A program made the translations under genes and the position numbers. A model generated the notes under the pieces. That model had not been told where the DNA came from. It ran no database searches and saw only the letters and a program-made list of their open reading frames with translations. Positions 4,241 to 60,739 of a stretch of DNA of 64,000 nucleotides are shown here, one piece after another (the stretch's first letter is position 1; each line of letters opens with the position of its first letter). The DNA is from a bacterium (GTDB lineage: Bacteria; Patescibacteriota; Saccharimonadia; Saccharimonadales; AWTP1-31): assembly GCA_030426125.1 (NCBI GenBank), contig JAUHZB010000001.1, positions 26,462-90,461 of the forward strand, read 5' to 3'.

Positions 4241-4304
4241 AGCTACCTCGCATTAAAATACTTTAACTAAAGTATAATGCTTTAGTTAATAATTACAAAA
4301 TATG

Positions 4305-4646: not shown

Positions 4647-4687
4647 AATCTATTTACGTTTTTTGTTATTTATCTAATTAATTACTA

Positions 4688-13407: not shown

Positions 13408-14037
13408 ATGAAATTTATTAGCGAAGTAATTAGTGTAATTCGTGACATTGTTCGCAACATCATCTTCCAGCTAGCCAAACGACTAAACAAACTAACTTCT
13501 GGCAACATAACTCCCAATTCAGTAACCTACACCAGTCTCCTAGCCCATATACCAATTGCTGTACTTATAGCTCTAGATTACCTGGTGCTAGCTGGTGTTT
13601 TATTAATAGTATTCGGCCTTTTTGACTCTTTGGATGGTGCCTTGGCTAGAATCCAGAAAAAAGCCAGCGACAAGGGGATGCTGCTTGATGCTTCTACTGA
13701 TCGAATGAAAGAAATTCTGTTGTACTGCGGTAGTGCCTACTACCTAGTTAATAACCAGGAAGCAAACTACGCTGTTTGGGCAGTCGCTGCCTGTGGAGCG
13801 TCTATTCTAGTGAGCTACATTAAAGCCAAGGGCGAAACTGCCATAGCTGGCAAAAAACTGAGCGCCAATGAAGTCAACCGAGCCTTTGCTGATGGCATTA
13901 TGCGCTTTGAAGTCCGAATGGCCGTATTAATAATTGCTCTGTTTAGCGGACAATTAAAATACGCCGTGGTATTTATCGCCATCACTTCGACGTTCACAGC
14001 CTTCGGAAGATTAATCTCTATCTCCAACAAACTATGA
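13408..14037 (+). CDS. CDP-alcohol phosphatidyltransferase family protein
   Basis: Signature D-G-x2-A-R-x8-G-x3-D-x3-D present as DSLDGALARIQKKASDKGMLLDASTDRMKE; multiple TM helices. Confidence 0.75.
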   Translation: MKFISEVISVIRDIVRNIIFQLAKRLNKLTSGNITPNSVTYTSLLAHIPIAVLIALDYLVLAGVLLIVFGLFDSLDGALARIQKKASDKGMLLDASTDRMKEILLYCGSAYYLVNNQEANYAVWAVAACGASILVSYIKAKGETAIAGKKLSANEVNRAFADGIMRFEVRMAVLIIALFSGQLKYAVVFIAITSTFTAFGRLISISNKL

Positions 14038-14687
14038 TAAAACTAGACCTCCATAGTCACTCGGTACTATCGGCTGATGGTAGCTTAAAAGAGTCAGATT
14101 ACCGCCGTCTGTTAGAGGAAAATATCTTAGACGCTATCGCCATAACCGATCATGATCAGATCGAATACGCCTTAGCAATGCATAAAATATTCAAGGACAA
14201 AATAATTATTGGCCAGGAAATATCCACTAAGCAGGGCGAGATAATTGGCCTTTTCTTGGACCAATTAGTAAAGCCAGATCAAGATATCAAGAAGACTATA
14301 GCTGACATCAAAAAACAAAAGGGTCTAGTATACATCCCCCACCCTTTTGAAACAGTCCGTAGTGGCATAACCCAGCAAACTATAGAAACCATTAAAAACG
14401 AGGTCGATATTGTTGAAGTCAACAATGGTCGAGCTTTTTTCCAGAACAAAGGACCTCAAGCAACAACTTGGGCTCGACTAAACAACAAAGTGGTGGCCTC
14501 CAGTAGTGACGCTCATGGACCAACTGGCATTGGTAGTTGCTACACCTTAATAAAGCGTCCCCCAACCAAAGAAAATCTAGTAGACCAACTTAAAATGGGA
14601 CGTCTTTGTGTCGATAAACCACCACTACTCAGTCTGCTCTACCCTAAGTACAACCGCATCCGTGCTAAACTAAAAATATCTAAATAA
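14034..14687 (+). CDS. PHP-domain (polymerase/histidinol phosphatase-like) metal-dependent phosphoesterase
   Basis: N-terminal LDLHSHSVLSADG and ITDHD motifs typical of PHP domain; 4-nt overlap with upstream gene (operon). Confidence 0.7.
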   Translation: MIKLDLHSHSVLSADGSLKESDYRRLLEENILDAIAITDHDQIEYALAMHKIFKDKIIIGQEISTKQGEIIGLFLDQLVKPDQDIKKTIADIKKQKGLVYIPHPFETVRSGITQQTIETIKNEVDIVEVNNGRAFFQNKGPQATTWARLNNKVVASSSDAHGPTGIGSCYTLIKRPPTKENLVDQLKMGRLCVDKPPLLSLLYPKYNRIRAKLKISK

Positions 14688-14689
14688 CT

Positions 14690-15214
14690 ATGAATCATTT
14701 TTTTCTTGTATTAATTTTCTTCCTTCCAGCCGGGTTAGCCAATTTAGCACCGGTAATCGCTAACAAGATTCCAATTCTTAATCAGTGGAAGACTCCTATA
14801 GATTTTGGGATAATGCTAAACGGCAAAAGACTACTTGGGGATAATAAAACTTGGCGAGGGCTGGTATTTGGTATCCTGGTTGGCGCCGTAACCGGATGGC
14901 TAACTTACCAATACATTAGTGATGTTGCCGTCCAGCAATTGTCTCATTTCTGGATTGGCGGACTACTCGGTGGCGGTGCTCTGTTTGGGGATAGCTTAGA
15001 AAGTTTTTTTAAACGACAGCTAAATATTCCATCTGGTAGTAGTTGGTTTCCATACGATCAGATAGATTATGTGCTGGGAGCTATACTATTTAGTCTACCG
15101 ATCGTAAGATTTTCGGTACTCGACTACTTCTCAGTAATTGGATTCTATTTTCTAGCACACCTGCTAACTAGCTTTATTGGCTTCAAACTGAAGCTCAAAG
15201 ATAAACCTATTTAA
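14690..15214 (+). CDS. CarS/CdsA-like CTP:lipid cytidylyltransferase-family membrane protein (CDP-alcohol synthase-like, DUF46-type)
   Basis: 174 aa polytopic; KTWRG motif and degenerate CdsA signature S-x-FKR-x...D-x-ID (SLESFFKRQLNI...DQIDYVLG). Confidence 0.5.
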   Translation: MNHFFLVLIFFLPAGLANLAPVIANKIPILNQWKTPIDFGIMLNGKRLLGDNKTWRGLVFGILVGAVTGWLTYQYISDVAVQQLSHFWIGGLLGGGALFGDSLESFFKRQLNIPSGSSWFPYDQIDYVLGAILFSLPIVRFSVLDYFSVIGFYFLAHLLTSFIGFKLKLKDKPI

Positions 15215-31684: not shown

Positions 31685-33154
31685 ATGGCAAAAACTAAAT
31701 CCAAAATAGAATCCGACGATCAACAGCCAGTCGGAGAGGGAACAACCAAACAGAGTATAATTCGTAGGCTCGTCGGACACCACAACGCCCACTGGTGGCT
31801 ACTTACCATAACTAGCCTTATCCTATTTCTACTACTAACCACTTGGTTGGTTGGCTCTCTAAACTACAAACAAACAGTTGTCGGAAATAGCCGTTTAGCC
31901 CATGGGCAACTAGATTCTCAACTTCAAACTACACTTAGCGGTGAAATAGAGGAATACAGATTACAAATAGCGTCCTTGAAAGAAGAGGAAGAAATAAAAT
32001 CCTACAAGTTATCCGAACTAGGGATTGAAATTGATGAATCCGCCACCGTTAACAGCACCAAAAACAATTCTAATTATTGGCGTAATAGATTGCTTTGGTG
32101 GAAGCCACTAAAGGCCGACATTTCACTAAAGATAGATAAAAACAAACTAATTAACTTTGTTAACGATAATACTAGATCAATATCTAAACCCGTAAAAAAT
32201 GCTAGTCTGAGCGTCGGACCAGAAGGAGAAATTGTAGTAACAGCCGAATCTACGGGTGCTGAAAAATCACTTGGCAATGGTCAGCTAGTCATAACCCAGG
32301 CTGTAAAAAGCTTGGATAGTAGCGTACTCGAACCTAGCGAAAGGGAGGTTAAACCAACAATTACCACAGAGTCTATTAGCGATAGTCGGCAACAGCTAGA
32401 AAAACTGCTAGCAAAACCAGTAATATTTAAGGTAGCTGAAAATACTATAAAACCAAGCGCTCACGACATTGCTTCTTGGCTGAATATAACTCCTGATGAA
32501 GACACAAAGTCATATAAAATATCAGTTGAAAAAACTAAACTGTCTGACTATATAAATGGTCAAGTAGCTAGATTTATCACTAGACCGGTTAATCAAGTAG
32601 AAGTAGTACTGCCTAGTGGCCAAAAGAGTATTTTAGTAACTGGGAAAAACGGCAGTGATGTAACCAATATCGATGAGGTGATCGCTTCAGTTCAAGAACG
32701 ACTCATGAAAGATAAATCTCTGTCATTAGAACTAACTGTCGCCTACACACCCTTCAAAACTATTAGTGCACCGGCTGGTAATAAGCTAATTGAAGTAGAT
32801 ACCACCAATAAAGTAATGTACGCCTATGAGAATAAAGTATTACTCAGAACAATGTATATATCAGCTGGAGCAGCAGCTACCCCAACAGTAACTGGAACAT
32901 TTTCAATTTATTCCAAACTACCATCACAAAATATGTCGGGCTTTAACGCCGATGGCTCTACCTATTACCAACCAAATGTACCTTATGTTAATTACTTCTA
33001 CCGTGACTACGCCATCCATGGTAACTACTGGAGACCAACTAGCTATTTTGGTAGCGTTAATAGTTCACACGGCTGCGTTGGTATCCTAGATGCTGATGCA
33101 AAATGGATATACGACTGGGCACCTATTGGGACTCCGGTGGTAGTCCATAATTAG
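31685..33154 (+). CDS. L,D-transpeptidase (YkuD-domain) protein with N-terminal TM anchor and large extracytoplasmic region
   Basis: C-terminal catalytic domain with ...HGNYW... and SHGCVG (catalytic Cys) motifs. Confidence 0.7.
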   Translation: MAKTKSKIESDDQQPVGEGTTKQSIIRRLVGHHNAHWWLLTITSLILFLLLTTWLVGSLNYKQTVVGNSRLAHGQLDSQLQTTLSGEIEEYRLQIASLKEEEEIKSYKLSELGIEIDESATVNSTKNNSNYWRNRLLWWKPLKADISLKIDKNKLINFVNDNTRSISKPVKNASLSVGPEGEIVVTAESTGAEKSLGNGQLVITQAVKSLDSSVLEPSEREVKPTITTESISDSRQQLEKLLAKPVIFKVAENTIKPSAHDIASWLNITPDEDTKSYKISVEKTKLSDYINGQVARFITRPVNQVEVVLPSGQKSILVTGKNGSDVTNIDEVIASVQERLMKDKSLSLELTVAYTPFKTISAPAGNKLIEVDTTNKVMYAYENKVLLRTMYISAGAAATPTVTGTFSIYSKLPSQNMSGFNADGSTYYQPNVPYVNYFYRDYAIHGNYWRPTSYFGSVNSSHGCVGILDADAKWIYDWAPIGTPVVVHN

Positions 33155-34574
33155 AATCTAAAGGGTGAACAGCTTTAAGCTCATCACCAACCCTAACTGA
33201 ATTCCAGTCAATAAAATACCCTTCAGCTTTGCCTAAAATACTATCTCCTCTAACTTTCGCTCTCGTATCTTGCGGCGGTGTTACTATACGGTGATTTTTA
33301 TCAGTATCACTGTTTGGCATAGTGAACCCATCCCAACCGACATTCTTCACATTACGAAGTGTCTCAGCAACCCCACCTTGAAGCATATCCCAGTAGTAGT
33401 CGTACCGGCATATTTTTTCAGAATCTATGCCGTAGCCACTAGCCTCCATCTTTCGCTCAAGTGCCATTTTTCGAGCTATTGATTCCACTTGAGTTGCCAC
33501 CGACGTCTCGTCTCTAACCATTCTATCGATTACATCAATTATTTCAGGTATAACCTGCTTCTCTTCGTCATCAAGAAAATCGTACAAACTATCCGACTCA
33601 AGAATATCGTAACAAATCGCCGATAACTGTTCCGCAGGTGTTAAGGCTAAATTTTCGTTATCTCTATTATAAGCATCTAATAATGTGTTATTCCCATGTC
33701 GTCCAACCAACTGTGCTTGCATCTCAGGAGTATGCAAAACCGGAAAATTGTAATCACCATCCCGCTCTAAAAGTCCAATAAATGCATTGGTTAGAACCAT
33801 ACTTGCTCGCATCGGCCAGGCAAAATTTAGTGCATCTGCAGTTATTGTCTCAACTCTGGTATACTGGCCATCATCTTTCCCAATATCTCTAACTAAAGCT
33901 TTTTTTGCATGTCCATCTGAATTCAACATAGATGAAACAGATAAGCGCGGAGAGTGATGGTATTCGGTCTCACCTTCCGAATTTATTAACAAACCCCCTG
34001 AGCCGAATATAGCTCCTTTTGCAACATTCAGAGTCGCGAGAAGTAGCGTGGTTTCAACTAACCTCCCATCATAGACTATACTTTTATCCGCATTGTTATT
34101 TAAATGAATACCTCTCGTTTGTCGATTATGATCAACGATTCTTCTATTGACTTGGTAACCCCTGATAACTTCTGAGCGTCTTAAACCCTCCAGAAGGCTT
34201 AACATAATAGTATCCCCGTCAAAACACCTCAAGACCGCTTCTTCGGCTGTCCTGGTCTCGGGAGTACAGTACTCTAAGCCACTTTCGTCTGTATATAGCC
34301 TTCCTCCATTGGATAATAAACTGTACCTATCACTACGCACGAGACCAATTCGCGCGAGTTCATTGTTTATCTCTTGGTTAGTCAGGCTACCACTACCGCT
34401 AAAATTAGCTGTACTTCGTAGTGAATCACCAGCAAATCCATCAACTGAATGGCACTCACCCACCAACTCGTAATATTCATCCTGACTTGGGTCTGAAGTG
34501 ATAGGAAAACCGATTAGACAATTATACTCTGTCTCTATCCCATAGACGTTGGGGGATCTATAAATTTCATGCAT
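33123..34574 (-). CDS. Pup-ligase family protein (PafA/Dop homolog, carboxylate-amine ligase fold)
   Basis: N-terminal NVYGIETEYN (cf. PafA IMGIETEFG), SNGGRLYTDESGLEYCTPE (cf. [20 protein letters not shown]), C-terminal TPPQDTRAKVRGDSI (cf. PPQTTRARLRGEFI); 483 aa. Confidence 0.7.
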   Translation of the reverse strand: MHEIYRSPNVYGIETEYNCLIGFPITSDPSQDEYYELVGECHSVDGFAGDSLRSTANFSGSGSLTNQEINNELARIGLVRSDRYSLLSNGGRLYTDESGLEYCTPETRTAEEAVLRCFDGDTIMLSLLEGLRRSEVIRGYQVNRRIVDHNRQTRGIHLNNNADKSIVYDGRLVETTLLLATLNVAKGAIFGSGGLLINSEGETEYHHSPRLSVSSMLNSDGHAKKALVRDIGKDDGQYTRVETITADALNFAWPMRASMVLTNAFIGLLERDGDYNFPVLHTPEMQAQLVGRHGNNTLLDAYNRDNENLALTPAEQLSAICYDILESDSLYDFLDDEEKQVIPEIIDVIDRMVRDETSVATQVESIARKMALERKMEASGYGIDSEKICRYDYYWDMLQGGVAETLRNVKNVGWDGFTMPNSDTDKNHRIVTPPQDTRAKVRGDSILGKAEGYFIDWNSVRVGDELKAVHPLDSNYGLPPESQ

Positions 34575-34622: not shown

Positions 34623-34712
34623 TTGGCGGAGAGGAAGGGATTCGAACCCTCGATACTGTTGCCAGCATACTGCTTTTCGAGAGCAGCTCCTTCAACCACT
34701 CGGACACCTCTC
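34623..34712 (-). tRNA. tRNA-Ser (anticodon CGA), 90 nt with long variable arm, CCA encoded
   Basis: Reverse complement GGAGAGGTGTCCGAGTGGTTGAAGGAGCTGCTCTCGAAAAGCAGT...GGTTCGAATCCCTTCCTCTCCGCCA; anticodon loop CUCGAAA. Confidence 0.85.
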
Positions 34713-34740
34713 CATATTTACTGTAACAGATGCCTGGGTG

Positions 34741-36138: not shown

Positions 36139-36441
36139 ATGCTATGGAGCTTGTATATGGATCCAACCATTGTCTTGAATGAAGCCGTCGATGTTATTGC
36201 CCTCTACAAAAAAGAGGCTAGTTTAGAGACTCTAGCTTTTCCCTGCAAAATGAAATACCAGGGCAGGGAGATCACTTTTACCAAGCTTGGCATGCGACAC
36301 CCTACCGCTCAGGGCAAGCGGATGATTCACGTTTTTGACGTAACTGATGGTAGTAATGACTATCGTCTAGAATTTAATGCTGAAACTCTGCGCTGGACTT
36401 TAGTAGCCATAATACCAGGAGGCGCGTCACGTGAGCTATAA
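36139..36441 (+). CDS. hypothetical small protein overlapping (11 nt) the start of the Y-family polymerase gene; possible accessory subunit
   Basis: 100 aa ORF translationally coupled to dinB-like gene; no motif recognised. Confidence 0.4.
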   Translation: MLWSLYMDPTIVLNEAVDVIALYKKEASLETLAFPCKMKYQGREITFTKLGMRHPTAQGKRMIHVFDVTDGSNDYRLEFNAETLRWTLVAIIPGGASREL

Positions 36442-37687
36442 CCTAAACAAAGCCAAACCAGAAATAATGTGGATTGATCTAAACAGCGCTTTTGCTACTG
36501 CCGAACAACAAGCTCATCACTCACTACGCGGAAAACCGATGGGAGTGACTAATAGACTATCTAAAGAATGCTGCGTTATTGCTGCCTCCTACGAAGCTAA
36601 AGCTCTAGGTATTAAAGTTGGCTGTCGCCGAACTGAAGCCCTGGCCCTTTGCCCAGATTTTATACTGCTAGAAAGCGATCCACCTAAGTACCATACTGTT
36701 TACCAGAAGTTACTTAGCATCATGAAAGACTACTCTCCTAACGTAAAAATGAAGAGCATTGATGAGGGAATTATAGATTTTCAAAACAGCAGGTCACTTA
36801 CAAAAGGTAGGTCCTTAAGCGACATTGGAAGGGAAATCAAACAAAGGGTAAGAACCGAAATAGGTGACTACACTAAAATAAATATCGGTATTGCTCCTAA
36901 CCGTTTTCTAGCCAAAACTGCTGCCGGACTTAATAAGCCCGATGGACTAGATGTCATAGATCACCATAGTCTAATTGATGTTTATGGTTCACTAGAACTA
37001 GAAGACCTCAACGGTATAGCTGAGGGTTACGGCAGTAGACTAAGAGCCCATAATATATCTACGCCGATAGAATTCTTGGGAGCTTCCGAACAACTACTAA
37101 CCAAAAGGGTGTTTAAAAGTATTAACGGGCGACATTGGTATAACCGACTCAGAGGCTTTGAAGTAGATGACTACCAAACTAATCTAGGAATGGTTGGTAG
37201 GCAATGGGTAGTCAAAAAGCCAACTAGTGACGAAGATTACCTAAGATCTTGTCTACACTTTCTAAGCGAGACAACAGCCATGAAACTGCGCTACCGTAAC
37301 GTTGAAGCCAGAGGTGTTTGCGTTTGGTTGGCTTTTAATAACGGTGAATTTTTTACAGATAAGAAAATGTATAAAACAAATTGCTACACCAACCAAGACA
37401 TCTGGCTACGAGTATCTAGACTATTCAATAATCGCCCTAAGCATCTAATAGTTAGAACTATGGGGCTATACTTGTATAAACTAACGCCTTCCAGTCGCAA
37501 CCAACAAAGCCTGTTTAGCGAAGTACAGAAGGCCGACTTTTTAACTAAAGCGATGGATGAAATAAACGACTACTACGGTACTTTCACTGTATATTCAGCT
37601 GACACACTGGAAGGAACTAAAAACGTAAAACAAAAAATACCTTTCGGTGGCACTGAATACTTCAACTTACTATTAAAACGAGCCTAG
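36431..37687 (+). CDS. dinB: Y-family DNA polymerase (Pol IV / DinB-UmuC type)
   Basis: MWIDLNSAFATAEQQAHHSLRGKPMGV matches the Y-family N-terminal catalytic motif (DxDxFFAxVE...RGKPxxV); 418 aa. Confidence 0.8.
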   Translation: MSYNLNKAKPEIMWIDLNSAFATAEQQAHHSLRGKPMGVTNRLSKECCVIAASYEAKALGIKVGCRRTEALALCPDFILLESDPPKYHTVYQKLLSIMKDYSPNVKMKSIDEGIIDFQNSRSLTKGRSLSDIGREIKQRVRTEIGDYTKINIGIAPNRFLAKTAAGLNKPDGLDVIDHHSLIDVYGSLELEDLNGIAEGYGSRLRAHNISTPIEFLGASEQLLTKRVFKSINGRHWYNRLRGFEVDDYQTNLGMVGRQWVVKKPTSDEDYLRSCLHFLSETTAMKLRYRNVEARGVCVWLAFNNGEFFTDKKMYKTNCYTNQDIWLRVSRLFNNRPKHLIVRTMGLYLYKLTPSSRNQQSLFSEVQKADFLTKAMDEINDYYGTFTVYSADTLEGTKNVKQKIPFGGTEYFNLLLKRA

Positions 37688-37704: not shown

Positions 37705-38271
37705 GTGAAAAGTCTAATATTCTGTACCGGAAATAATATGAAGTTTAATACTGCAAAGGATGTTTGCAGTAAAAGGAATATTGAACTAGTCCAAAAAAAC
37801 ATAGATATTACTGAGATACAAGAAGAAGATGCCAAGAAAGTAGCAATAGATAAAGCCAATAAAGCCTACGATATCATACAAAAACCAGTAGTAATAACCG
37901 ATGATTCATGGGGATTCACGGGCTTAAATGGCTTCCCCGGCGTCTATATGCACTCCGTTAATGAATGGTTTAGTGCTGAAGATTTTCTAAGACTAACCTT
38001 GCCTCTAAAAAACAGGGAGGTAATATTTACCCAACACCTGATATACAGCGACGGCCAACAACAAAAAGTCTTCAAACGAACGAGCAAGGGAACTCTTTTA
38101 AAAGAAATTCGAGGTGAATCTTCACACCCCTGCTTGACTATAATTTCCCTAGATAGGGAAAGCGGCAAAAGTATAGCTGAAAGTTATGATCCTAAAAAGG
38201 ATAAGTCTGGTCGGATAGCAGCTAATATCTGGAGGGAATTTCTGGATTGGTATCAAGACGTTGCAACATAA
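37705..38271 (+). CDS. Ham1/RdgB-like non-canonical purine NTP pyrophosphatase, divergent paralog
   Basis: IFCTGNNMKFNTAK...KPVVITDDSWGFTGLNGFPGVYMHS parallels RdgB (ATGNxGK...DDSGLxVDALNGAPGVYSAR) but lacks clear SHR motif. Confidence 0.55.
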   Translation: MKSLIFCTGNNMKFNTAKDVCSKRNIELVQKNIDITEIQEEDAKKVAIDKANKAYDIIQKPVVITDDSWGFTGLNGFPGVYMHSVNEWFSAEDFLRLTLPLKNREVIFTQHLIYSDGQQQKVFKRTSKGTLLKEIRGESSHPCLTIISLDRESGKSIAESYDPKKDKSGRIAANIWREFLDWYQDVAT

Positions 38272-38275
38272 GATG

Positions 38276-38476
38276 CTAGTTTTCGCCGAGGATAATCTTA
38301 TCTGAAATATCTAAGGTATTATCATCTTCTAAGGCAGCAGATTGGTCTGCTCCTTCAGGTGAAGCAGGTTCACCATGTTCAGTACCACTAACCGGTCCAT
38401 CATCTAACGGAGCTGGAAGATCATATTCTAATCCTGATTCCGGATGATCTGCTGTATTCATGGCTCCATTAAACAC
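38276..38476 (-). CDS. small acidic intrinsically-disordered-type protein (61-66 aa), hypothetical
   Basis: ORF track (GTG start; first ATG at codon 6); D/E-rich, ends ...LEDDNTLDISDKIILGEN. Confidence 0.25.
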   Translation of the reverse strand: MFNGAMNTADHPESGLEYDLPAPLDDGPVSGTEHGEPASPEGADQSAALEDDNTLDISDKIILGEN

Positions 38477-41937: not shown

Positions 41938-42498
41938 TTAAGTCAGCTCTGAATACTTTTTAGCAAACAATTTAATAGCCTTGGATCTATGACTAACTGC
42001 GTCCTTTTCGGCGGTATTCATTTCTCCGTAAGTCTTACTGCTGCCTTCAGGAATAAAAACCTTGTCAAAACCAAAGCCATTATCTCCACGCGGCGCCACA
42101 ACAACTCCTTTATTTTTGCCAACTACTGAGAAAGACCGTTGGCCATCGTAGTAAGCTATAGCGCAAGCAACTCTAGCGGGTTCGTTTTCTCTTCCAGCCA
42201 GTAGATGTAGTGCGTTTTCACCGATTGTTTTTAAAAAGAACTTAATAAAAGGACCAGGGAGCCAACCTAACTTCTCAATTCCAGCGCTAACGTCTTCTAC
42301 GATTACTGGTGTTTTTAGGATATTGTAAGCACGTTTTGCTTTATCTAAAACAATTTCTTCAGGATCAAGGGACTGTATTTCAGGGATATCTAAATCATGG
42401 ATATCAATGTCCAATCCTAATTCCGAGTCCAGTATTCTGCGCCATTCCGCTAGCTTACCTGTATTACCGGATACTAAAGTTAGCTTCATTGGGCACAT
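41938..42498 (-). CDS. rdgB: non-canonical purine NTP pyrophosphatase RdgB/Ham1 (dITP/XTP pyrophosphatase)
   Basis: LVSGNTGKLAEW, TPVIVEDVSAGIEKLGWLPGPF, FGFDKVFIP, SHRSKA motifs. Confidence 0.8.
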   Translation of the reverse strand: MCPMKLTLVSGNTGKLAEWRRILDSELGLDIDIHDLDIPEIQSLDPEEIVLDKAKRAYNILKTPVIVEDVSAGIEKLGWLPGPFIKFFLKTIGENALHLLAGRENEPARVACAIAYYDGQRSFSVVGKNKGVVVAPRGDNGFGFDKVFIPEGSSKTYGEMNTAEKDAVSHRSKAIKLFAKKYSELT

Positions 42499-43121: not shown

Positions 43122-43334
43122 ATGGCACAAAAAGTTATAAAAATCGGAAGTTCTTTAGGCGTTACTATTCCAAAAAAAGAACTTAGCGAACTCAACATCA
43201 TAGCTGGAGATGAAGTTGAAGTAGCAATAAAGAAAAAGTCTAGTAAAGCTATTAAGCACGAACAGTTACTAAAAAATCTCGAGGGTTTTATGGATACATA
43301 TGACCAAGATCTCAAGAATTTAGCAAAAAGGTAA
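43122..43334 (+). CDS. AbrB/MazE (SpoVT-AbrB) type antitoxin
   Basis: 70 aa; MAQKVIKIGSSLGVTIPKKELSELNIIAGDEVEV swapped-hairpin motif; 1-nt overlap (TAATG) with doc. Confidence 0.7.
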   Translation: MAQKVIKIGSSLGVTIPKKELSELNIIAGDEVEVAIKKKSSKAIKHEQLLKNLEGFMDTYDQDLKNLAKR

Positions 43335-43720
43335 TGAAATATTTGACGGCCGAGGAAATCTTGTTGATTCACCACCAACTCATCGAGCGATATGGTGGAT
43401 CGCACGGTACTCGTGATTTATCCAGAATTAAATCCGTGGCTATCGCGCCGTCTCAATTTGTTTTTGGTGAAGAGCAATACAAAACAATTTTTAAAAAAGC
43501 AGCCGTTTACGCACGCAATATAATTACTGATCACCCGTTTCATGATGGAAATAAGCGAACAGGAATTACAACTGCTGCAATGTTCTTAGCTAAAAATGGA
43601 TATAATCTAAAAACAGGTGTAGGTGAAATAGAAAACTTCGCCGTAAAAATTGCGACTAAAAAGCTGAGTGTTGACGATATTGCCAACTGGCTTAAGCAAC
43701 ACACAAGCACAATCAATTAG
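43334..43720 (+). CDS. doc: Doc (death-on-curing) Fic-family toxin
   Basis: HPFHDGNKRTG = Doc/Fic core motif HxFx(D/N)GNKR. Confidence 0.8.
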   Translation: MKYLTAEEILLIHHQLIERYGGSHGTRDLSRIKSVAIAPSQFVFGEEQYKTIFKKAAVYARNIITDHPFHDGNKRTGITTAAMFLAKNGYNLKTGVGEIENFAVKIATKKLSVDDIANWLKQHTSTIN

Positions 43721-46761: not shown

Positions 46762-47181
46762 TTATCCGCTTTGGCCAACAAATCGTTCTAGTACGAAACG
46801 TACAATGATCTGGGCAAGTGCTACTACTACAAGGCCAATTACAGCGTATAGAATAGTATTCTTGGCGGCTGTAATGTTAGAACTTTCACCTTGAGAGGTA
46901 ATGTATTTAACACCACCGACAATGATCATTACTACAGCGATGATACCAACTACTGCACTAAATAGGTTAAGGCCTAGGGTTACAGTTTCGTTTACTTGGG
47001 TTCCAGCTGATTCGTCAGTTACACAAGTTCCATCAGCGCCAAGTAATTCACCGTCTGTTCCAGAACAAACACTGTCTTGAAGCTCAAAAGCGGCATTTGC
47101 CACTGGAGCCATTGCAAATGGAGTAACTAGCGCTGCTGAAGCTAGAACTGTTATTAACATTTGTTTAATTGTTTTTATCAT
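46762..47181 (-). CDS. VirB2/TrbC-like T4SS pilin-family protein, paralog 1 (last in array)
   Basis: Signal peptide ...PVANA, Cys pair (CSGTDGELLGADGTC), two C-terminal hydrophobic helices with GGVKYITSQGES...AKNTILYAVIGLVVV motif. Confidence 0.55.
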   Translation of the reverse strand: MIKTIKQMLITVLASAALVTPFAMAPVANAAFELQDSVCSGTDGELLGADGTCVTDESAGTQVNETVTLGLNLFSAVVGIIAVVMIIVGGVKYITSQGESSNITAAKNTILYAVIGLVVVALAQIIVRFVLERFVGQSG

Positions 47182-47254
47182 TTTAAATTTTAACCTTTCT
47201 TTATTCTCTATTGTTTATACCATAACTTGCTTGGGCTTATCAAGTTGTTTGTCC

Positions 47255-47659
47255 TTATGTAAACTGCGTCAATACAAACCTAACAATAATCTGAGCTAGA
47301 GCAACTATTACAAGACCTATAAGGGCATACATCACACTATTTTTTGCTTCGTTTATTTTACCGCTCTCACCCTGTGATGTCATGTACTTTACCCCACCGA
47401 TCATAACCATAACTATGGCTATTATTCCAATAATAGCACTAAATAGATTTAGGCCAGTCTGGATAATACCGTCCACAGAAGTTGAGTCTGGATTTTCGCA
47501 ACCGTCTCCACTAGCCGAACTCACCCCAGCTCCTGCACAAACCGCTTTCTTGGCTGTTTCATCTGCAGCTGAGGCCATTGACGGAAAAAGAGATATTGCA
47601 AACATGCTACCGAAAAACATAATTAAGGCTATAGTGGTTAATTGAATTTTTCTTATCAT
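47255..47659 (-). CDS. VirB2/TrbC-like pilin-family protein, paralog 2
   Basis: Signal ...MASA, Cys pair, GGVKYMTSQGESGKINEAKNSVMYALIGLVIVALAQ motif. Confidence 0.55.
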   Translation of the reverse strand: MIRKIQLTTIALIMFFGSMFAISLFPSMASAADETAKKAVCAGAGVSSASGDGCENPDSTSVDGIIQTGLNLFSAIIGIIAIVMVMIGGVKYMTSQGESGKINEAKNSVMYALIGLVIVALAQIIVRFVLTQFT

Positions 47660-48066
47660 AATCTACTCTGTATAAAATACACTATTGTGCGAGCTAAAAC
47701 CAGTACCACAATACCTACTGCAGTATAAATCAAACCAGTCCTTGCTTTAGTAACTTTTGCGCTATCTCCTGACGACATAATTAGTTGTAGTCCATTGTAC
47801 ATAACCATGACAACAGCGATAATTCCACCGACTGCAGCAACTAGATTAGCGATAGTAGATATCAAATTATCTTCACCAGCTAATAGATCAGTGTCTGTTG
47901 GAGTCTGACATACGGCAGAATCGCTTGCAGATCCAGCAGAACCGTCACGACAACCAGGGAATGGATCAACAGCACTAACAGTATCCATATTCACCAATGA
48001 AAAAGTTAAGAATAAGAAACTTATTAGTGTGAATAGCTGTAGGAACAAAGGAATTTTTTTAATCAT
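47656..48066 (-). CDS. VirB2/TrbC-like pilin-family protein, paralog 3
   Basis: Signal ...VSA, Cys pair, NGLQLIMSSGDSAKVTKARTGLIYTAVGIVVL motif; 4-nt overlap with paralog 2. Confidence 0.5.
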   Translation of the reverse strand: MIKKIPLFLQLFTLISFLFLTFSLVNMDTVSAVDPFPGCRDGSAGSASDSAVCQTPTDTDLLAGEDNLISTIANLVAAVGGIIAVVMVMYNGLQLIMSSGDSAKVTKARTGLIYTAVGIVVLVLARTIVYFIQSRL

Positions 48067-48347
48067 ACACGATTCACCACAAAGTTAAGGATAGTAGAAG
48101 CCGATACTGCCACAGCTAAACCTAGAGCGGCATAAATTATAGACTTTCGTGCCTTGGATAAAGCTTGTGGGTCATCTTGGGCTAACATAAACTTAATGCC
48201 TGATATCATAATAACTATCAGGGAAACTCCACCTATAATTACAAATACTATGTACAAAATTGTCTGAAATGGATCACGTGTTGTTGTATCTATATTTGGC
48301 AGTGGGCTTGTATCCACAGCAAGCAGCCTGGCTAAACTACTAAACAT
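48063..48347 (-). CDS. VirB2/TrbC-like pilin-family protein, paralog 4 (short, 94 aa, no clear signal peptide)
   Basis: ISGIKFMLAQDDPQALSKARKSIIYAALGLAVAV motif; 4-nt overlap with paralog 3. Confidence 0.45.
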   Translation of the reverse strand: MFSSLARLLAVDTSPLPNIDTTTRDPFQTILYIVFVIIGGVSLIVIMISGIKFMLAQDDPQALSKARKSIIYAALGLAVAVSASTILNFVVNRV

Positions 48348-48349
48348 AA

Positions 48350-48739
48350 CTAAAACCTCCCTGCAACATAAACCACAATACCTGATGCCAGAGTCACAAT
48401 AACCACTCCAATTAGAGCATTCATTATAGTAGTCTTAGCATCTTTCACACCCTCAGGTTCACCCTGGCTGGTAATAAATTTAAAACCGCCATAAATGATA
48501 AAGCCAAAGGCCACTAGTCCACCGAATCGAAGCAATATATCGATAATTGCTAAGCCAATTTTTAACAGATCGGCTGGGTTTGAAGCAAAATCTATATCTA
48601 CCTTACAGCTTTCGGTGAAATCCAAATACTTATACCAAGTAGGGAAAATACCAAGGAATAATGAATTCTTGCCACATTCGGGACCTGCTGCGAAAAGAAC
48701 AGGAAGATAACTGTTTAAGCTTGCTATGGTAAGCCACAT
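48350..48739 (-). CDS. VirB2/TrbC-like pilin-family protein, paralog 5
   Basis: Cys pair (CGK...C), GGFKFITSQGEPEGVKDAKTTIMNALIGVVIVTLA motif. Confidence 0.5.
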   Translation of the reverse strand: MWLTIASLNSYLPVLFAAGPECGKNSLFLGIFPTWYKYLDFTESCKVDIDFASNPADLLKIGLAIIDILLRFGGLVAFGFIIYGGFKFITSQGEPEGVKDAKTTIMNALIGVVIVTLASGIVVYVAGRF

Positions 48740-48740
48740 T

Positions 48741-49139
48741 TTATATTACCCCTCCTGGCCACAACCATTGTAGTAACCCTAAGAAAAATATATAAGTAAC
48801 AAGCGCCAATATAGCATTATTTATTTTGCTTTTGGCAGCCGAGACTTTCTGAGGGTCACTACCAGCAGAAGTATACTGAATTCCAGCAATAATTATCATA
48901 GCGGTTACTACTATACCAATGGTGTAGGTCAAGAGCTTTATAGCCGGATCTATTAGTTTCTCGGTAATATCACAGTCTTCAGTGCTATCACACCGACTAA
49001 AGCTTGGTTCTTCGTCAGCAGCTAATACTGTCTGTGAAGGAACAACCGCAACACTTAGCAGAAAGCTTGAAAAAATAGCTAAAAATATTAGTTTTATGTT
49101 TATTAGATTAAATGTTGGTTTTTTGAGTATTGTAAACAT
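48741..49139 (-). CDS. VirB2/TrbC-like pilin-family protein, paralog 6 (first in array)
   Basis: Signal ...VLAA, Cys pair (CDSTEDC), AGIQYTSAGSDPQKVSAAKSKINNAILALV motif. Confidence 0.5.
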   Translation of the reverse strand: MFTILKKPTFNLINIKLIFLAIFSSFLLSVAVVPSQTVLAADEEPSFSRCDSTEDCDITEKLIDPAIKLLTYTIGIVVTAMIIIAGIQYTSAGSDPQKVSAAKSKINNAILALVTYIFFLGLLQWLWPGGVI

Positions 49140-49400
49140 TATGTTTTGGTTTCCTGAACTTAGCAGGTGATAGTAATTACAGGCAGTAATTATACTACTA
49201 ATTCAAATTATACATCAATAAACAATAATTACAGCCAGCAACCCTATATTGGACTTATTGTTTTTCATGGTTTTAGATATGAATCTAGATTTGCGATATT
49301 ACCCTATCAAGACTATAGTAAATGTAAGTCATGTTAAGACAAATTTTATACAGATATTTAAGTATTGAATCAAAACTTAGGTTACGGTGAAAACATTTAA

Positions 49401-52400
49401 ATGAAAAAAATCAATCTAAAATTAATCAACTGGGCATTACTTTTTGTGTTTGCAATACAAATAACACTGCCTGTTATTTTACCCCCAACCAAGGTTAGCG
49501 CAGCAGAAAGTGTCGAAAGCTTAAAATCTAAAGTTAAACACATACAGAAACTCCGAGGACTTCGAAAGTGCATTGACGATAAACTAGCCACTGGAGGTAT
49601 CGGATTAGAAAGTGGTCCATTTACCCTAAAATTTATTGCTGGTAGAGCAGTGAATGCGTACGATACCCCCGTTGGCCATGGTGTTGATACTGGTGATGGT
49701 AAGTGGGACTGCGCTAGCGCGAGTGGCGACAGGGAGAACACTTGGTTCAAATTAATCCTAAAAAATGGTAGCGATAGTGAATACTACTCAGGTTGGAGTA
49801 GTGGCGGCGATAATTCCTATAAATCCGTTGCAAGCAAGAACCTAGCCGAAGAAGGGGGATATCTATACTTTATTAATCGGGATAATTTAGCTTCCCACTC
49901 TGGAGGTGGAAAGCTAACCGAAGGCCCTGCTAAAGGGAAAGTCAAAGATCAGCTAGGTAGAACAATAGCCGTGCTAGAAAGAGACTTAACTCAAGATGAA
50001 AAAGATGCCATGGCTTACCTTAACCTTTCATGGACTTTTGCTGATTCAAATGCCTGCAAAGCTCAGGAAGTTGACGCCAATAGCGGTGGAAAGAAAGTTA
50101 AAATTGGCAACAAATTATTCAGAGTAGGAAATCCTGGTGGTAAAAATTCAGTTGGTTTTGGCTTTTATGGTGATAACGGTCAAGGTATTGGAGATGGTAA
50201 TTTAACCTGTGAGCAAATAGCAGACAGGATGGCTTCCTTGGCTTCATCATATGAAAAAGCCACCGGTGACACATCCACAATACCCGAAGGATCAAACCGC
50301 GCCGTAGAAGCAGATGGCGACACCGAAGGAGACATAGAAGCACAATGCGATATCACCCCGAATCCGATCACTTGGATAATGTGTGCCTTAATTACTGGTT
50401 TTATAGAGGCCATTAACGCTCTTGATGAAGGAGTTACAAACCTACTAAACATTCGCGCCGCTGAATTCTTCGGCGAAGGCCAAGTAGGCGACAGCTTCAA
50501 TAGCGTTTGGGTAAGTGTTCGGACCATAGCTCTAGGTTTCCTGATAATTGTCGCTCTAGTTATGATAATCAGTACAGCTATAGGTGTTGGCCCCTTTGAT
50601 GCCTATACCGTTAAAAAGGTGATGCCTAGATTAGTAGCAGTTATTATATTAATACCGCTATCTTGGTCTATTGTTTATTTCATGATTGACATGACTAGTG
50701 TTATTGGATTTGGTGTGAGAAATCTAATTCAGGCACCTTTCGCTGCAAATATTGAAGGTATTGGCTTCGGTAGTACTGTATCTACAACTGCTGCAACAGG
50801 ACTACTTGTTGGAGGTTTATTCCTTGGATTACCTGGCCTTCTAAGCTTCTTGGTAGGTGGTTTTTTAGCAGTGCTAATTGCATATGTAGTACTTGTTCTT
50901 CGGCAAATATTCATAATACTTCTTGCTGTATTAGCACCCGTCGCACTGGTTGCAGCCATTCTGCCAAATACACAAAAAGCTTGGAAATTTTGGTGGGAAT
51001 CTTTTTGGAAGGCGCTCATAGTATTCCCAATTATTGCGGCATTTATTGCTGCAGGCCGAATATTTGCCCAAGTCGCCGAAACAACACAAGGTGGAGGTGT
51101 AGGTGACCTTATCGCGTTCGTGGCCTACTTTGCTCCGTATTTCCTAATACCTCAGGCCTTCAAAATGGCAGGAGGTCTACTAGGCAACCTAACTGGTGCT
51201 GTTAATGATCGAGGTCGTGGAGCCTTCGATAGACTTCGGAAGTTCCGCCAAGGGCAAATGCAACAGAATATGCAAAAAATTGATGAGGGGTCGAGATTTA
51301 GCGACAGAACTAAACTTGGCAGTAAGGTTAACTCGGGACTCCGCAAAACCAGTAAATTAAATGAGGCTGGTTTTCGACCAAGTAAAATGCGATCAAACAT
51401 CAATTCTGCAATATCGGCACAAGACCTAAGATTAGCCGATGAAAAAGGCGAAAAAGACGATGCAGTCCGTGCAATAATTAATGATGATGATATGCTAGAT
51501 TCATTTAAATTTGATGATACAGATGATCAAATTCGACAAAGACTACTTGATAGTGGAAGATTCGGCGAGGCCGGATCTAAAGAACTCAATGCCGCAGTTG
51601 CAACAGTGCGACGAGCAAAACGTACGGCTAATAGTAGCGTAAGAAGTCAAATTGCTGCCGTTGGTTCAACCGCAACAGGTACGGGAATAAAAACACATGC
51701 TGATATGTATCAAGCTGCCATTGATGCCTCAGATGGTAATCCATCAACCAGGAACGCTGTATTTGCCAAAATGCGTGCTGCGGCTGAACGCGCCGGTAAC
51801 TACTCATTGTCTGGCCCAGGCCATGCAGAATCAGTAGATGCAATGGAAAGCATGGCGAGAGGAGAGTCGGCATCGAGTATTAATGCCCGAATGCTTGCAA
51901 GATCCATGGAGGTACAAGGGGCGGGTAAAATCCTACAAGGAAAACCTACGGATGTTGAAAACTTAACCGCACAACTAGCAACAGACTATCAGTCCGCTAT
52001 GGCTGATGGAGATCTCGATAAAGCAACCTCACTTGCCGCACAAATGAAATCATTGCGAGATGCAGATAACGGAGCATCGCCTGAAAATACTAAACATGTT
52101 AATGCTATGCTTGCAGCTTCAGAGATAGATGAGGGTATGGTCAACCCCGAAACAGGTGCACCTTTGTCGATCGACGAACAATTCGCAAGGAAAATATCCG
52201 GGCGAATGGGCTCTTCGCTAACAACCGAAGTGAAGGACAAGTATGCCACCGAGCTAGCTGCGGAACATCAACGTCGTGTTAATTCTGAAAACATAGTTCG
52301 AGCTAGAAGCGGACAACCACAACTCACTGGAGCTGAGAGTTTAGCAAAATTTGACAAACTCGTAGATGAGACAGCTCTAAACGTCATTAATCAAAGGATT

Positions 52401-52496
52401 CGTACTCGTGCTGGATCGTACGACGTTGGAGGTGGTAATAGGAACGTTCCAGAAGAACTCAGGAGACAACAAGCCTTAAGTCAAGACGATAATTAA
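49401..52496 (+). CDS. VirB6/TrbL-like polytopic T4SS membrane protein with large N-terminal exported and C-terminal soluble domains
   Basis: 1031 aa; signal peptide, then at least 6 consecutive TM helices (residues about 375-610), divergently transcribed from pilin array. Confidence 0.55.
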   Translation: MKKINLKLINWALLFVFAIQITLPVILPPTKVSAAESVESLKSKVKHIQKLRGLRKCIDDKLATGGIGLESGPFTLKFIAGRAVNAYDTPVGHGVDTGDGKWDCASASGDRENTWFKLILKNGSDSEYYSGWSSGGDNSYKSVASKNLAEEGGYLYFINRDNLASHSGGGKLTEGPAKGKVKDQLGRTIAVLERDLTQDEKDAMAYLNLSWTFADSNACKAQEVDANSGGKKVKIGNKLFRVGNPGGKNSVGFGFYGDNGQGIGDGNLTCEQIADRMASLASSYEKATGDTSTIPEGSNRAVEADGDTEGDIEAQCDITPNPITWIMCALITGFIEAINALDEGVTNLLNIRAAEFFGEGQVGDSFNSVWVSVRTIALGFLIIVALVMIISTAIGVGPFDAYTVKKVMPRLVAVIILIPLSWSIVYFMIDMTSVIGFGVRNLIQAPFAANIEGIGFGSTVSTTAATGLLVGGLFLGLPGLLSFLVGGFLAVLIAYVVLVLRQIFIILLAVLAPVALVAAILPNTQKAWKFWWESFWKALIVFPIIAAFIAAGRIFAQVAETTQGGGVGDLIAFVAYFAPYFLIPQAFKMAGGLLGNLTGAVNDRGRGAFDRLRKFRQGQMQQNMQKIDEGSRFSDRTKLGSKVNSGLRKTSKLNEAGFRPSKMRSNINSAISAQDLRLADEKGEKDDAVRAIINDDDMLDSFKFDDTDDQIRQRLLDSGRFGEAGSKELNAAVATVRRAKRTANSSVRSQIAAVGSTATGTGIKTHADMYQAAIDASDGNPSTRNAVFAKMRAAAERAGNYSLSGPGHAESVDAMESMARGESASSINARMLARSMEVQGAGKILQGKPTDVENLTAQLATDYQSAMADGDLDKATSLAAQMKSLRDADNGASPENTKHVNAMLAASEIDEGMVNPETGAPLSIDEQFARKISGRMGSSLTTEVKDKYATELAAEHQRRVNSENIVRARSGQPQLTGAESLAKFDKLVDETALNVINQRIRTRAGSYDVGGGNRNVPEELRRQQALSQDDN

Positions 52497-52521
52497 TGCG
52501 CATTGACATAGTGATATATAT

Positions 52522-53670
52522 GTGATAATATATAAAATAGACATGAAAACAAAAAACCACCCTCCTACAAACACAATCAACTCTAGCCCTGAAACACAAC
52601 CGCAACCTATAGAGATCCAAGAAGAAGAAGTTGCCTATAGTGGCTTGCGTCGTGAACTTTTTCAACGTGTCTCGGATGCAGCCTCAAACAGCATAGAAAA
52701 AACCTCGCAAACAGACCATGTAATCAGGACTGCTCCAAGTGGTGCAGAAAGAACCAGAGGCTTCTATAGCGCTCCTGAGCCTAACGACGTTAAGCCGGTC
52801 GGAATTTTCGAAAAAGCAGCAAGCCATATCAGACAAAGACAAGCTGCAAAAAAGCGTCGCCTAGAGTATGAACGTCGGCGGCTGCACAGTAGTCACGGAG
52901 GAGTCCCAGAGGACACAATAGACTACTCTAATCCAGAAAAACCCAAAAACCCAGTTTTTACGCTGGAAAGAGAATTCTCTCCAACAGCCCCAAGCGTCAA
53001 AAAAAGTGTTGAAAAATTAGAAAAAAACAGAGAAGATCAAGGGGTACCTAAAGCCAGCAAACTAGGTGTAAAGCCGATGAATGACTATGGTGAAGTCTAC
53101 AAAAAAAGAAGATCTTGGAGAGAGCGTAGAATAGAAAAAACCCAAACCAGAAAAGATCGGCGATTAAAAAAAGCTATTGATAGGCTAGACAGAAAACTCG
53201 AACGGGGCGAAGACGGTAAGACCTTGCATGGTAAATATCGAGATAAAAAAATTCATTTACTTGAATCTCTTAAACAATATTCCGATAAAAGAGTCGCTCA
53301 TGAAGACAGTAAACTTGTTAAAGTTGCACGGCAGAAAAACAAGCAAGAGTTAGCTAAATTTCTTGCAACGCACCCACCACTAGCTATGATGAGTCGAGCT
53401 GAAGCACAACAGCTGTCCGATTTACAGCGAGCAGGCGAAGCTCGTGTACTAGAAGCTGAAATGGAACTATGGATGAGGAGGTCGGGCGCAATTTCTGAAA
53501 ATGAGCGTAGGAAGTTAATTAGACAGCGTCGAGAAGCATCCTTTAGGGGAGATCAGCATAATCGACGATTGATGAAAACCGCAGCAGGCAGGCAACAACT
53601 AAAGCGACAATTCAATATAGACAATGGTGTATACGGAAGATTGCCCGAAGAAGACCAAAGTAGGAAATAA
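52522..53670 (+). CDS. hypothetical highly basic K/R/E-rich coiled-coil protein within T4SS locus
   Basis: 382 aa, runs of KKRR / RRRL, no TM; possibly nucleic-acid binding (inference only). Confidence 0.4.
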   Translation: MIIYKIDMKTKNHPPTNTINSSPETQPQPIEIQEEEVAYSGLRRELFQRVSDAASNSIEKTSQTDHVIRTAPSGAERTRGFYSAPEPNDVKPVGIFEKAASHIRQRQAAKKRRLEYERRRLHSSHGGVPEDTIDYSNPEKPKNPVFTLEREFSPTAPSVKKSVEKLEKNREDQGVPKASKLGVKPMNDYGEVYKKRRSWRERRIEKTQTRKDRRLKKAIDRLDRKLERGEDGKTLHGKYRDKKIHLLESLKQYSDKRVAHEDSKLVKVARQKNKQELAKFLATHPPLAMMSRAEAQQLSDLQRAGEARVLEAEMELWMRRSGAISENERRKLIRQRREASFRGDQHNRRLMKTAAGRQQLKRQFNIDNGVYGRLPEEDQSRK

Positions 53671-53717
53671 TTTAACAATACTGTACACAGCGACAATTAC
53701 TTTGTACCATATAGGTT

Positions 53718-54782: not shown

Positions 54783-54805
54783 AATAAAGTGGGTAAAACA
54801 GATAT

Positions 54806-57738: not shown

Positions 57739-57754
57739 GGTTGAGGTATAGCTT

Positions 57755-60736: not shown

Positions 60737-60739
60737 ACT

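Follow-up and report, generated by a model that had tools for sequence, protein, structure and literature searches.

A Saccharibacteria-specific lineage of PafA/Dop-family enzymes encoded without linked pupylation or proteasome genes

Pupylation has been treated as an essentially actinobacterial (plus Nitrospirae) trait that is tied to the proteasome. Homologs of its two enzymes, the ligase PafA and the deamidase Dop, occur sporadically in several phyla and as single-copy proteins in Planctomycetes according to Hecht et al., in whose listing the candidate phyla radiation (CPR) is absent (PMC7947786), and pupylation of a non-degradative, regulatory nature takes place without a 20S core in Corynebacterium glutamicum (PMC12288473). 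No literature report on PafA, Dop, pupylation, or the proteasome in Saccharibacteria, CPR, or Patescibacteria was found. We analyzed a stretch of 64 kb (hereafter, the window) out of the 289,771-bp contig JAUHZB010000001.1 of a Saccharimonadales bacterium, in which the gene at 33123..34574 on the minus strand, exactly where the initial annotation had placed it, starts with ATG and encodes a protein of 483 amino acids that is a real, full-length member of the Pup-ligase/deamidase family. Among the glutamine-synthetase-fold carboxylate-amine ligases, the enzyme falls into the PafA/Dop branch and, within this branch, into a Saccharibacteria-specific lineage (the "SACCH type", hereafter the Saccharibacteria clade). 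The gene is part of a large, unstudied set of orphan Pup-ligase-family genes that are found in ultra-small bacteria of the CPR. The family itself is an established one, and automatic annotation already covers the gene; the unstudied part is the Saccharibacteria clade with altered invariant residues, an insertion other than that of Dop, and an orphan context.

PF03136 (Pup_ligase) was the sole Pfam match of the protein. At 94.7 bits (E 8.1e-27) against a cutoff of 25, the match was far above random expectation, and it covered residues 10-460 and positions 2-440 of the 441 positions of the profile, bearing out the family membership proposed in the initial annotation. The motifs named at that time were all present, i.e., GIETEY at residues 12-17, NGGRLYTDESGLEYCTPE at residues 89-106, and TRAKVRG at residues 437-443. 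The NCBIfam equivalog models for Dop (TIGR03688) and PafA (TIGR03686) gave 47.1 bits (cutoff 492.3) and 35.3 bits (cutoff 551.3), respectively, which are about a tenth of the cutoffs, indicating that the protein is neither PafA nor Dop. A profile made from 24 members of the clade matched Dop (4b0r) in the PDB with an E value of 3e-20 and 75 bits, over residues 9-451 against 3-456, and PafA (4b0t) with an E value of 3e-13 and 52 bits. The AlphaFold2 (AF2) model generated on the clade alignment, with a predicted local distance difference test (pLDDT) score of 86.8 and a predicted template modeling (pTM) score of 0.90, exhibited a glutamine-synthetase-like β-sheet cradle and a small C-terminal domain. 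Its Foldseek matches, at a probability of 1.00, were Dop 4b0r with a template modeling (TM) score of 0.73 (E 7e-21) and PafA 4bjr with a TM score of 0.70, whereas YbdK 1r8g was matched at a TM score of 0.42 (E 1.7e-6) and glutamine synthetases at 0.42 or lower. Thus, by both the Pfam result and the TM score of YbdK, the protein is not a member of GCS2, the other carboxylate-amine ligase family that had been considered.

All of the family motifs are present, namely, GhExE, the catalytic Asp on NGxRxYxD, HxN, three phosphate-binding Arg residues, and TRAxxRG, and 48 alignment columns are invariant among 24 clade members, including N89, G90, R92, Y94, D96, E101, E106, H157, N159, R210, R229, R240, D247, T437, R438, A439, and R442. 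In the following, Dop numbering is that of Acidothermus cellulolyticus Dop (Acel Dop), and the coordinates of all residues are on the minus strand of the window. The GhExE motif, which is responsible for nucleotide and Mg binding (PMC7947786), is found as GIETE at residues 12-16 (34527..34541), where E14 and E16 correspond to Dop E8 and E10. The catalytic strand (residues 89-106; 34257..34310) carries D96, which aligns with the catalytic Asp (Dop D94 and PafA D64), together with R92, Y94, and E101, which correspond to Dop R90, Y92, and E99. H157 and N159 in RGIHLN (residues 154-159; 34098..34115) correspond to Dop H155 and N157, and the invariant R210 in PRL (residues 209-211; 33942..33950) to Dop R205 and PafA R185. 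K225 (33900..33902), which is R or K across the clade, corresponds to PafA R201 and Dop R221, the residue that contacts the terminal residue of Pup (PMC8599861). In the segment of residues 229-249 (33828..33890), R229, R240 (Dop R239), and D247 (Dop D246) are conserved, where R229 corresponds to Dop R227 in the hidden Markov model (HMM) alignment but is gapped in the MAFFT alignment. Dop R227 and H241 hold the catalytic phosphate, with H241 hydrogen-bonded to it (PMC8599861). The TRAKVRG segment (33246..33266) provides the T-R-A-x-x-R-G motif (T432, R433, A434, R437, and G438 in Dop), so that T437, R438, A439, and R442 correspond to Dop T432, R433, A434, and R437, and W457 in the D456-W457 pair (33204..33209) corresponds to the Trp in the C-terminal domain of Dop (W453). 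Judging from this invariance of the core catalytic and nucleotide-binding residues across the clade, the enzyme looks catalytically competent.

The positions that discriminate between the hydrolase and the ligase, which were taken from Hecht et al. (PMC7947786), form a mosaic in the clade. PafA is characterized by an extra residue after the catalytic Asp, a short N-terminal segment without a loop, and a helical α-loop (PMC7947786). In the clade, the Asp-to-PEY spacing is Dop-like, the sequence after the catalytic Asp being D-E-S-G-L-E-Y without an extra residue, in contrast to D-V-G-S-H-P-E-Y with the Val insertion in PafA, and the "TPE" that is mostly found is also Dop-like. The Asp before the C-terminal Trp (D456) is, on the other hand, of the PafA type (D439 in PafA, S452 in Dop), and the α-loop (residues 213-225), which is not helical in the AF2 model, is like that of neither enzyme. 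The position taken in the initial annotation that a ligase (PafA) and a deamidase (Dop) cannot be told apart by eye here thus still applies.

A distinctive element is a clade-specific N-terminal insertion, which comprises residues 24-88 (34311..34505) and is located at the topological site of the Dop-loop, being not homologous to it. The Dop-loop is recognized by W47 and F49 and by its acidic 3-10 helix (PMC8599861); the insertion lacks W47, F49, and DFEEE and could not be aligned to the Dop-loop. It has a near-invariant VGxCHS motif, represented here by the Cys-His motif GECHS at residues 39-43 (34446..34460), and a helix with the pattern ALxxxG(I/V), which was otherwise found only in a few CPR2-type intermediates, one of them from a genome named "Saccharibacteria bacterium CPR2". 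Residues 42-55 of the insertion are predicted to be disordered. The spacing from GxExE to NGxR is 77 residues, the corresponding values being approximately 80 for Acel Dop and 35-55 for PafA-like proteins.

In a protein search space of 5.8 billion sequences, at least 100 sequence clusters, all of PF03136 and with identities of 36-56%, were among the matches listed, and every taxon-specific source name among them was Candidatus Saccharibacteria or Saccharimonadales. These clade matches carry the database label "proteasome accessory factor PafA2 family protein", which misleads, as no proteasome gene is linked at the loci. The clade gene was found in 15 GTDB species-representative genomes, of which 12 have Saccharibacteria, Saccharimonadales, or Saccharimonas in their titles and three are called just "bacterium". 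An HMMER search of 1.84 billion representatives gave 1738 family members at E values up to 1e-3 in three tiers, i.e., the Saccharibacteria clade at the top with approximately 15 full-length representatives (530-658 bits), a few intermediates of the CPR2 type (160-306 bits), and a continuum of 90-140 bits, which represents a PafA-like third group. The proteins of the third group have a length of approximately 445-475 amino acids, a short N-terminus, and the motif NGxRxYxDxGxHxEYATPE, and those with names, which are few, include metagenome-assembled genomes of Candidatus Saccharimonadales; the profile of the third group scored approximately 400-425 bits against true actinobacterial PafA. By hhalign, the scores of which are not a phylogeny, the Saccharibacteria clade scored 608 against the intermediates, 419 against the third group, 309 against Dop, and 256 against PafA; the third group scored 708 against Dop and 723 against PafA, and Dop scored 833 against PafA. 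In a neighbor-joining (NJ) tree of 151 sequences, which is supporting evidence only because its distances were saturated and the clade was monophyletic in only 34 of 50 bootstraps, the clade was nested with the intermediates, beside the third group and apart from Dop and PafA. Taken together, the nearest relatives of the clade appear to be the CPR2-type proteins, followed by the PafA-like third group, with actinobacterial Dop and PafA being the most distant.

Saccharibacteria live on Actinobacteria, the phylum in which pupylation is best known, and it had been suggested in the initial annotation that the gene was acquired horizontally, possibly from an actinobacterial host. A fairly recent uptake of a PafA or Dop gene from such a host would be in line with this association, with the position of the gene adjoining a tRNA gene, as tRNA genes are common integration sites, and with the genomic context, which differs between lineages. 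However, in BLAST, the protein reached no more than 43.5 bits with Acel Dop and 28.5 bits with C. glutamicum PafA, whereas the PafA-like group of CPR scored 100-190 bits with both, and Dop and PafA were also the farthest by hhalign. A phylogeny had been proposed as a check for nesting within Actinobacteria, and the NJ tree put the clade with the CPR2-type proteins. The GC content (0.419) and the GC content at third codon positions (GC3, 0.347) of the gene are those of the background (window means of 0.417 ± 0.026 and 0.352 ± 0.039, respectively), the clade occurs throughout environmental Saccharibacteria, and the neighboring YkuD gene is missing in the closest relative, L002 (homolog loci are designated by L numbers). 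The composition, the hhalign scores, the NJ tree, and the spread of the clade jointly argue against acquisition from an actinobacterial host, which we consider very improbable. The identities of 36-56% across many Saccharibacteria indicate that the gene has resided there for long, and the favored history is one in which it has long been part of the CPR lineage and has diverged strongly within Saccharibacteria. The gene is not a one-off sporadic copy, single-copy orphan homologs being common in CPR-type genomes.

Both types of paralog were found in one genome only in L025 and L026, which represent one organism sampled twice. In L025, an intact gene of the PafA-like third group (2769-4130, minus strand) lies next to, and is oriented divergently from, a copy of the Saccharibacteria type (4272-4973, plus strand), and the arrangement in L026 is the same. 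The latter copy encodes 233 amino acids, being truncated, with Glu at the position of the catalytic Asp (NGGRLYLEPSG) and with the CHS motif lost. The two genes were rejected as a working pair of PafA-like and Dop-like enzymes because the Saccharibacteria-type copy is decaying. No homolog was matched in the search of the plasmid collection. The single match in the phage collection, L038 (MT835496.1 38213-47355), was rejected as a phage homolog; the record is titled "UNVERIFIED: Bacteriophage sp.", comes from human feces, and has a GC content of 74%, and the region has the canonical arrangement of an Mpa-like ATPase, Dop, and PafA, with a score of 665 bits for the Dop profile. It is probably actinobacterial chromosomal DNA mislabeled as phage.

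The stand-alone nature of the gene, which had been noted for its surroundings with respect to the proteasome, Mpa/ARC, and an obvious Pup, holds for the whole window. Pfam scans and precomputed Pfam assignments, which covered essentially all non-nested open reading frames (ORFs) of at least 110 amino acids, gave no proteasome, AAA+ Mpa/ARC, or Pup family in the window, and no plausible small ORF ending in GG[QE] was present there. In 29 clade loci and six loci of related groups, no partner from the Pup-proteasome gene set (pup, mpa/arc, prcB, prcA, pafA, and dop) was found within approximately 10 kb, and no pupylation or proteasome genes appeared in the precomputed Pfam neighborhoods of four additional members of the clade or of five related proteins. 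Furthermore, no plausible Pup/UBact-like ORF ending in G[QE] was found in 527 kb of the loci. Two ORFs with such an ending were encountered in the window and the 527 kb and rejected, one being hydrophobic and nested in a longer gene and the other a Cys-rich ORF of 41 amino acids. With no Pup, Mpa/ARC, or 20S gene linked to the gene here or at 34 related loci, the reaction would probably be proteasome-independent, and such a role, as raised in the initial annotation, is plausible also in light of the precedent of C. glutamicum (PMC12288473).

It is probable, in our analysis, that the protein acts as an active, proteasome-independent, ATP-dependent γ-glutamyl ligase or amidase for a substrate ending in Glu or Gln. 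It would be a cytoplasmic enzyme kept under purifying selection, in a lineage that has probably arisen from, or as the sister of, a broader set of PafA-like genes that stand alone in a single copy, at least some of them in CPR genomes. ATP and Mg would be bound in the β-sheet cradle by E14/E16, E101, H157/N159, R210, R229, R240, and T437-R438-A439/R442, and the γ-carboxylate of a C-terminal Glu would be activated through γ-glutamyl-phosphate; alternatively, the amide of a C-terminal Gln or an isopeptide might be attacked in the manner of Dop. K225 would hold the terminal residue of the substrate, D96 would operate as the catalytic base, and the intermediate would be resolved by an amine for ligation or by water for deamidation or de-conjugation, in accordance with the chemistry of the family (PMC7947786; PMC8599861).

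Several points weigh against this reading. The clade-invariant E242 stands where Dop has the phosphate-contacting H241, L249 is in place of N248, L158 is in place of E156, which is conserved in Dop and PafA, the R-D-E triplet is cut to R, and the His of HPEY, conserved in Dop and PafA as H97 and H68, is deleted in the clade. H231 is also replaced, by Phe or Lys. These substitutions at positions invariant in Dop and PafA, i.e., within our own samples of the two enzymes, imply that the chemistry or the substrate may have departed from Pup-type reactions. In addition, the view is limited to 64 kb here and at most 10 kb on either side in relatives, so that an unlinked Pup, Mpa, or proteasome gene is possible, and no substrate or partner turned up in the window and the related loci. 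The small number of third-group members with taxon names and the limits of the hhalign and NJ comparisons noted above belong to the same side. As far as can be read from the residues, E242, L249, L158, the loss of the HPEY His, and the Cys-His insertion suggest altered phosphate or metal handling and altered gating compared with PafA and Dop.

The same features have to be weighed for other functions. The protein might be a Dop-like amidase that removes γ-glutamyl-linked tags or deamidates a C-terminal Gln, perhaps acting on host-derived Pup or pupylated proteins that are taken up from an actinobacterial host, as it is nearer to Dop than to PafA throughout, by TIGR03688 versus TIGR03686 (47 versus 35 bits), PDB matches (75 versus 52 bits), and hhalign (309 versus 256), and as it has the Asp-to-PEY spacing, mostly "TPE", a long insertion at the site of the Dop-loop, and an α-loop (residues 213-225) predicted to be non-helical, like that of Dop (PMC8599861). 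However, the insertion is not a homolog of the Dop-loop, the phosphate-holding H241 is changed to Glu, Dop T217 is not conserved in the clade, and the C-terminal Trp is preceded by the PafA-type Asp. Moreover, a signal peptide is absent because the N-terminus leads straight into strand β-1, a lone hydrolase would need a source of substrate, and relatives are present in CPR lineages without a known actinobacterial host, so that a purely Dop-like role is rather unlikely. The replacement of several positions invariant in the Pup enzymes and the lack of a tag gene in the window or the 527 kb of loci could also be explained by a switch to a non-protein γ-glutamyl compound, i.e., a small-molecule or cell-wall carboxylate-amine reaction without protein tagging; the superfamily holds the small-molecule ligases GS, GCS, and YbdK (PMC7947786), and the gene overlaps an L,D-transpeptidase gene here. 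Such a switch is nevertheless improbable, with the whole PafA/Dop architecture kept, including the Trp of the C-terminal domain, with the basic residue for the terminal residue of Pup kept as R or K, with the YkuD neighbor missing even in the closest relative, and with YbdK and GS much farther in fold (TM 0.42 or lower). The loss of several family-invariant residues, along with the decaying relative in L025/L026, might even point to an inactive remnant, i.e., a pseudoenzyme with only a structural or regulatory role, but the core catalytic and nucleotide-binding residues are invariant in more than 20 divergent clade members and full-length ORFs are kept in 29 loci, which leaves this explanation with hardly any probability.

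With regard to the immediate surroundings of the gene, both flanking genes named in the initial annotation were confirmed. The L,D-transpeptidase gene (YkuD/PG_binding_4 by Pfam; 31685..33154, plus strand) is convergent with the Pup-ligase-family gene at its 3' end with an overlap of 32 bp, and tRNA-Ser(CGA) (34624..34713, minus strand) lies 49 bp upstream of the start codon on the same strand, preceded by a DHFR gene also on that strand. A scan for promoters and terminators around the Pup-ligase-family gene gave signals no better than those of shuffled sequence, and no family of the PADLOC-DB 2.0 defense models matched the protein at E values up to 1. ORF clustering of neighbors, in 16 and then 36 loci, revealed no neighbor family conserved across the 29 clade loci, and only L002, the closest relative, which is without the YkuD gene, is syntenic. 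Response regulators recur in eight loci but are not consistently adjacent, and they were rejected as partners and judged to be a common paralog family. An ORF of 135 amino acids downstream of the PafA-like gene in L025 (ending in LLAPE) was rejected, having no homolog in any other locus, as was an ORF of 83 amino acids with a coiled coil upstream of the gene in L035, which ends in QQQ while its counterpart in L032 ends in QWG, the Gln/Glu terminus being inconsistent.

Same-strand tRNA genes were found within 250 bp of the homologs in seven of 26 loci, compared with approximately 4% expected from the local tRNA density (binomial P of about 7e-5, with the loci not fully independent). The tRNA identities vary among Ser, Pro, Glu, Phe/Gly, and Thr, and the genes flanked belong to the Saccharibacteria clade as well as to the PafA-like group. 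Besides the tRNA of the window, they are located at 9845-9921 and 11458-11534 in L013, 9827-9901 in L015, 5116-5190 in L007, 9864-9939 and 11468-11544 in L032, 9879-9954 and 11503-11578 in L035, and 11452-11528 in L036. This flanking could reflect co-transcription with the tRNAs or hot spots of insertion. Several homolog loci also have defense or mobile genes beside them, i.e., type IIG restriction-modification with AAA_15/23 and PLD-SNF2, an SMODS cyclase with an S24 peptidase, GmrSD, a serine recombinase, and an AbiE-like toxin-antitoxin pair (L028 11517-21398; L030 13251-20375; L033 15282-17180; L032 11533-13029; L025 880-2156).

A more far-reaching interpretation is that Saccharibacteria and CPR run a minimal, proteasome-independent tagging system, in which a single PafA/Dop-type enzyme perhaps both writes and erases the tag and the modifier, unrecognizable by homology to Pup or UBact, is encoded elsewhere. 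The version of the clade would then have been re-engineered with the Glu-for-His phosphate ligand and the Cys-His gating insertion, and the recurrent location of the genes in tRNA arrays would link their expression to tRNA transcription. We regard this interpretation as unlikely. A speculative candidate for a local modifier in such a system is a 61-amino acid, acidic, probably disordered protein (called gene P0339) encoded at 38276..38461 on the minus strand, 3.7 kb from the enzyme gene. Among the 5.8 billion sequences, it has one homolog, with 82% identity, at 234-416 of L037, which is closely related and syntenic; the two proteins differ in their N-terminal parts and agree in the 17 C-terminal residues, EDDNTLDISDKIILGEN, but the DNA of this C-terminal stretch is identical too, which leaves selection on the protein unproven. 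Because of this and of an end in Asn, not Gln or Glu, the ORF is a weak candidate and was rejected as a Pup-like tag.

Other parts of the window contain features apart from the enzyme gene. A type IV secretion system (T4SS)-like cluster extends over 46762-62566, with five tandem T4SS_pilin genes (46762-49139), a gene for a 1031-amino acid protein without a Pfam match (49401-52496), and genes for a PrgI-family protein (53718-54782), a VirB4/TraG-like P-loop ATPase (55822-57738), a VanY-domain protein of 993 amino acids (57755-60736), and a fusion of GDSL-lipase, phage-tail-lysozyme, and M23 peptidase (60740-62566). A gene for a MazE-type antitoxin of 70 amino acids is directly followed by a Fic/Doc-family toxin gene at 43122-43720. 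Three neighboring genes at 13408-15214 encode a CDP-alcohol phosphatidyltransferase, a PHP-domain protein, and a CarS-like protein of the CDP-archaeol synthase family (PF01864), an archaeal-type lipid-synthesis family that is present here in a bacterial genome. At 36139-37687, a gene for a Y-family DNA polymerase (IMS/IMS_C) is preceded by an overlapping ORF of 100 amino acids without a Pfam match, and a small ORF pair resembling the one associated with IMS is also present in L015 (13450-14005). There are also two Ham1/ITPase paralogs in the window (37705-38271 and 41938-42498).

The present findings place a PafA/Dop-type enzyme with intact predicted catalytic residues, and with no tag, unfoldase, or protease detected nearby, among the smallest bacterial genomes. 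The Saccharibacteria form is distinct, with changes at positions invariant in both known enzymes, and the retention of the gene despite the reduction of these genomes implies that its function is important. The identity of its substrate would reveal either a new bacterial protein-tagging pathway or new chemistry for the fold. Furthermore, single-copy forms bear on the function of the ancestral PafA/Dop enzyme before duplication (PMC7947786).

In comparison with Dop of A. cellulolyticus (4B0R/7OXY, TIGR03688), the clade shares the fold, GhExE, NGxRxYxD, HxN, the R205/R227/R239 set (R227 by the HMM alignment), TRAxxRG, and the C-terminal Trp, as well as the Asp-to-PEY spacing and a long insertion at the place of the Dop-loop, whereas the identity is only approximately 18%, the insertion is non-homologous with its own VGxCHS, H241, N248, and E156 are replaced by Glu, Leu, and Leu, respectively, and H231 by Phe or Lys, H95/H97 are absent, T217 is not conserved, and no pup, mpa, or prcBA is linked here. 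With PafA of C. glutamicum (4B0T/4BJR, TIGR03686), it shares the fold (TM 0.70), the core catalytic residues, and the Asp before the Trp of the C-terminal domain (D439), but it does not have the extra residue after the catalytic Asp (DVGSHPEY), its N-terminal segment is approximately 30 residues longer, its α-loop is not predicted to be helical, and the window yielded no Pup gene. UBact systems, as reportedly described by Lehmann et al. in 2017, represent Pup-like tagging outside Actinobacteria, in Gram-negatives and, it is said, in some CPR lineages, and their loci are said to combine, in one cluster, homologs of Mpa, Dop/PafA, and the proteasome with a recognizable tag whose last residue is Gln or Glu; the window and the loci here contained neither a cluster nor a tag of this kind. 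The proteasome-less pupylation of C. glutamicum (PMC12288473) is a parallel in that a Pup-family enzyme works without a 20S core, although that organism keeps Pup, PafA, Dop, and ARC, whereas no Pup, ARC, or second paralog was found in the window. The single-copy PafA/Dop homologs outside Actinobacteria and Nitrospirae, such as the Planctomycetes proteins that served Hecht et al. as an outgroup (PMC7947786), and the third group share with the clade the presence of one family member per locus without adjacent proteasome genes, and their distances to Dop and to PafA are about equal. H97, H241, N248, the RDE motif, and the short N-terminus are still present in the third group, whereas they are lost in the Saccharibacteria clade, which has gained its insertion.

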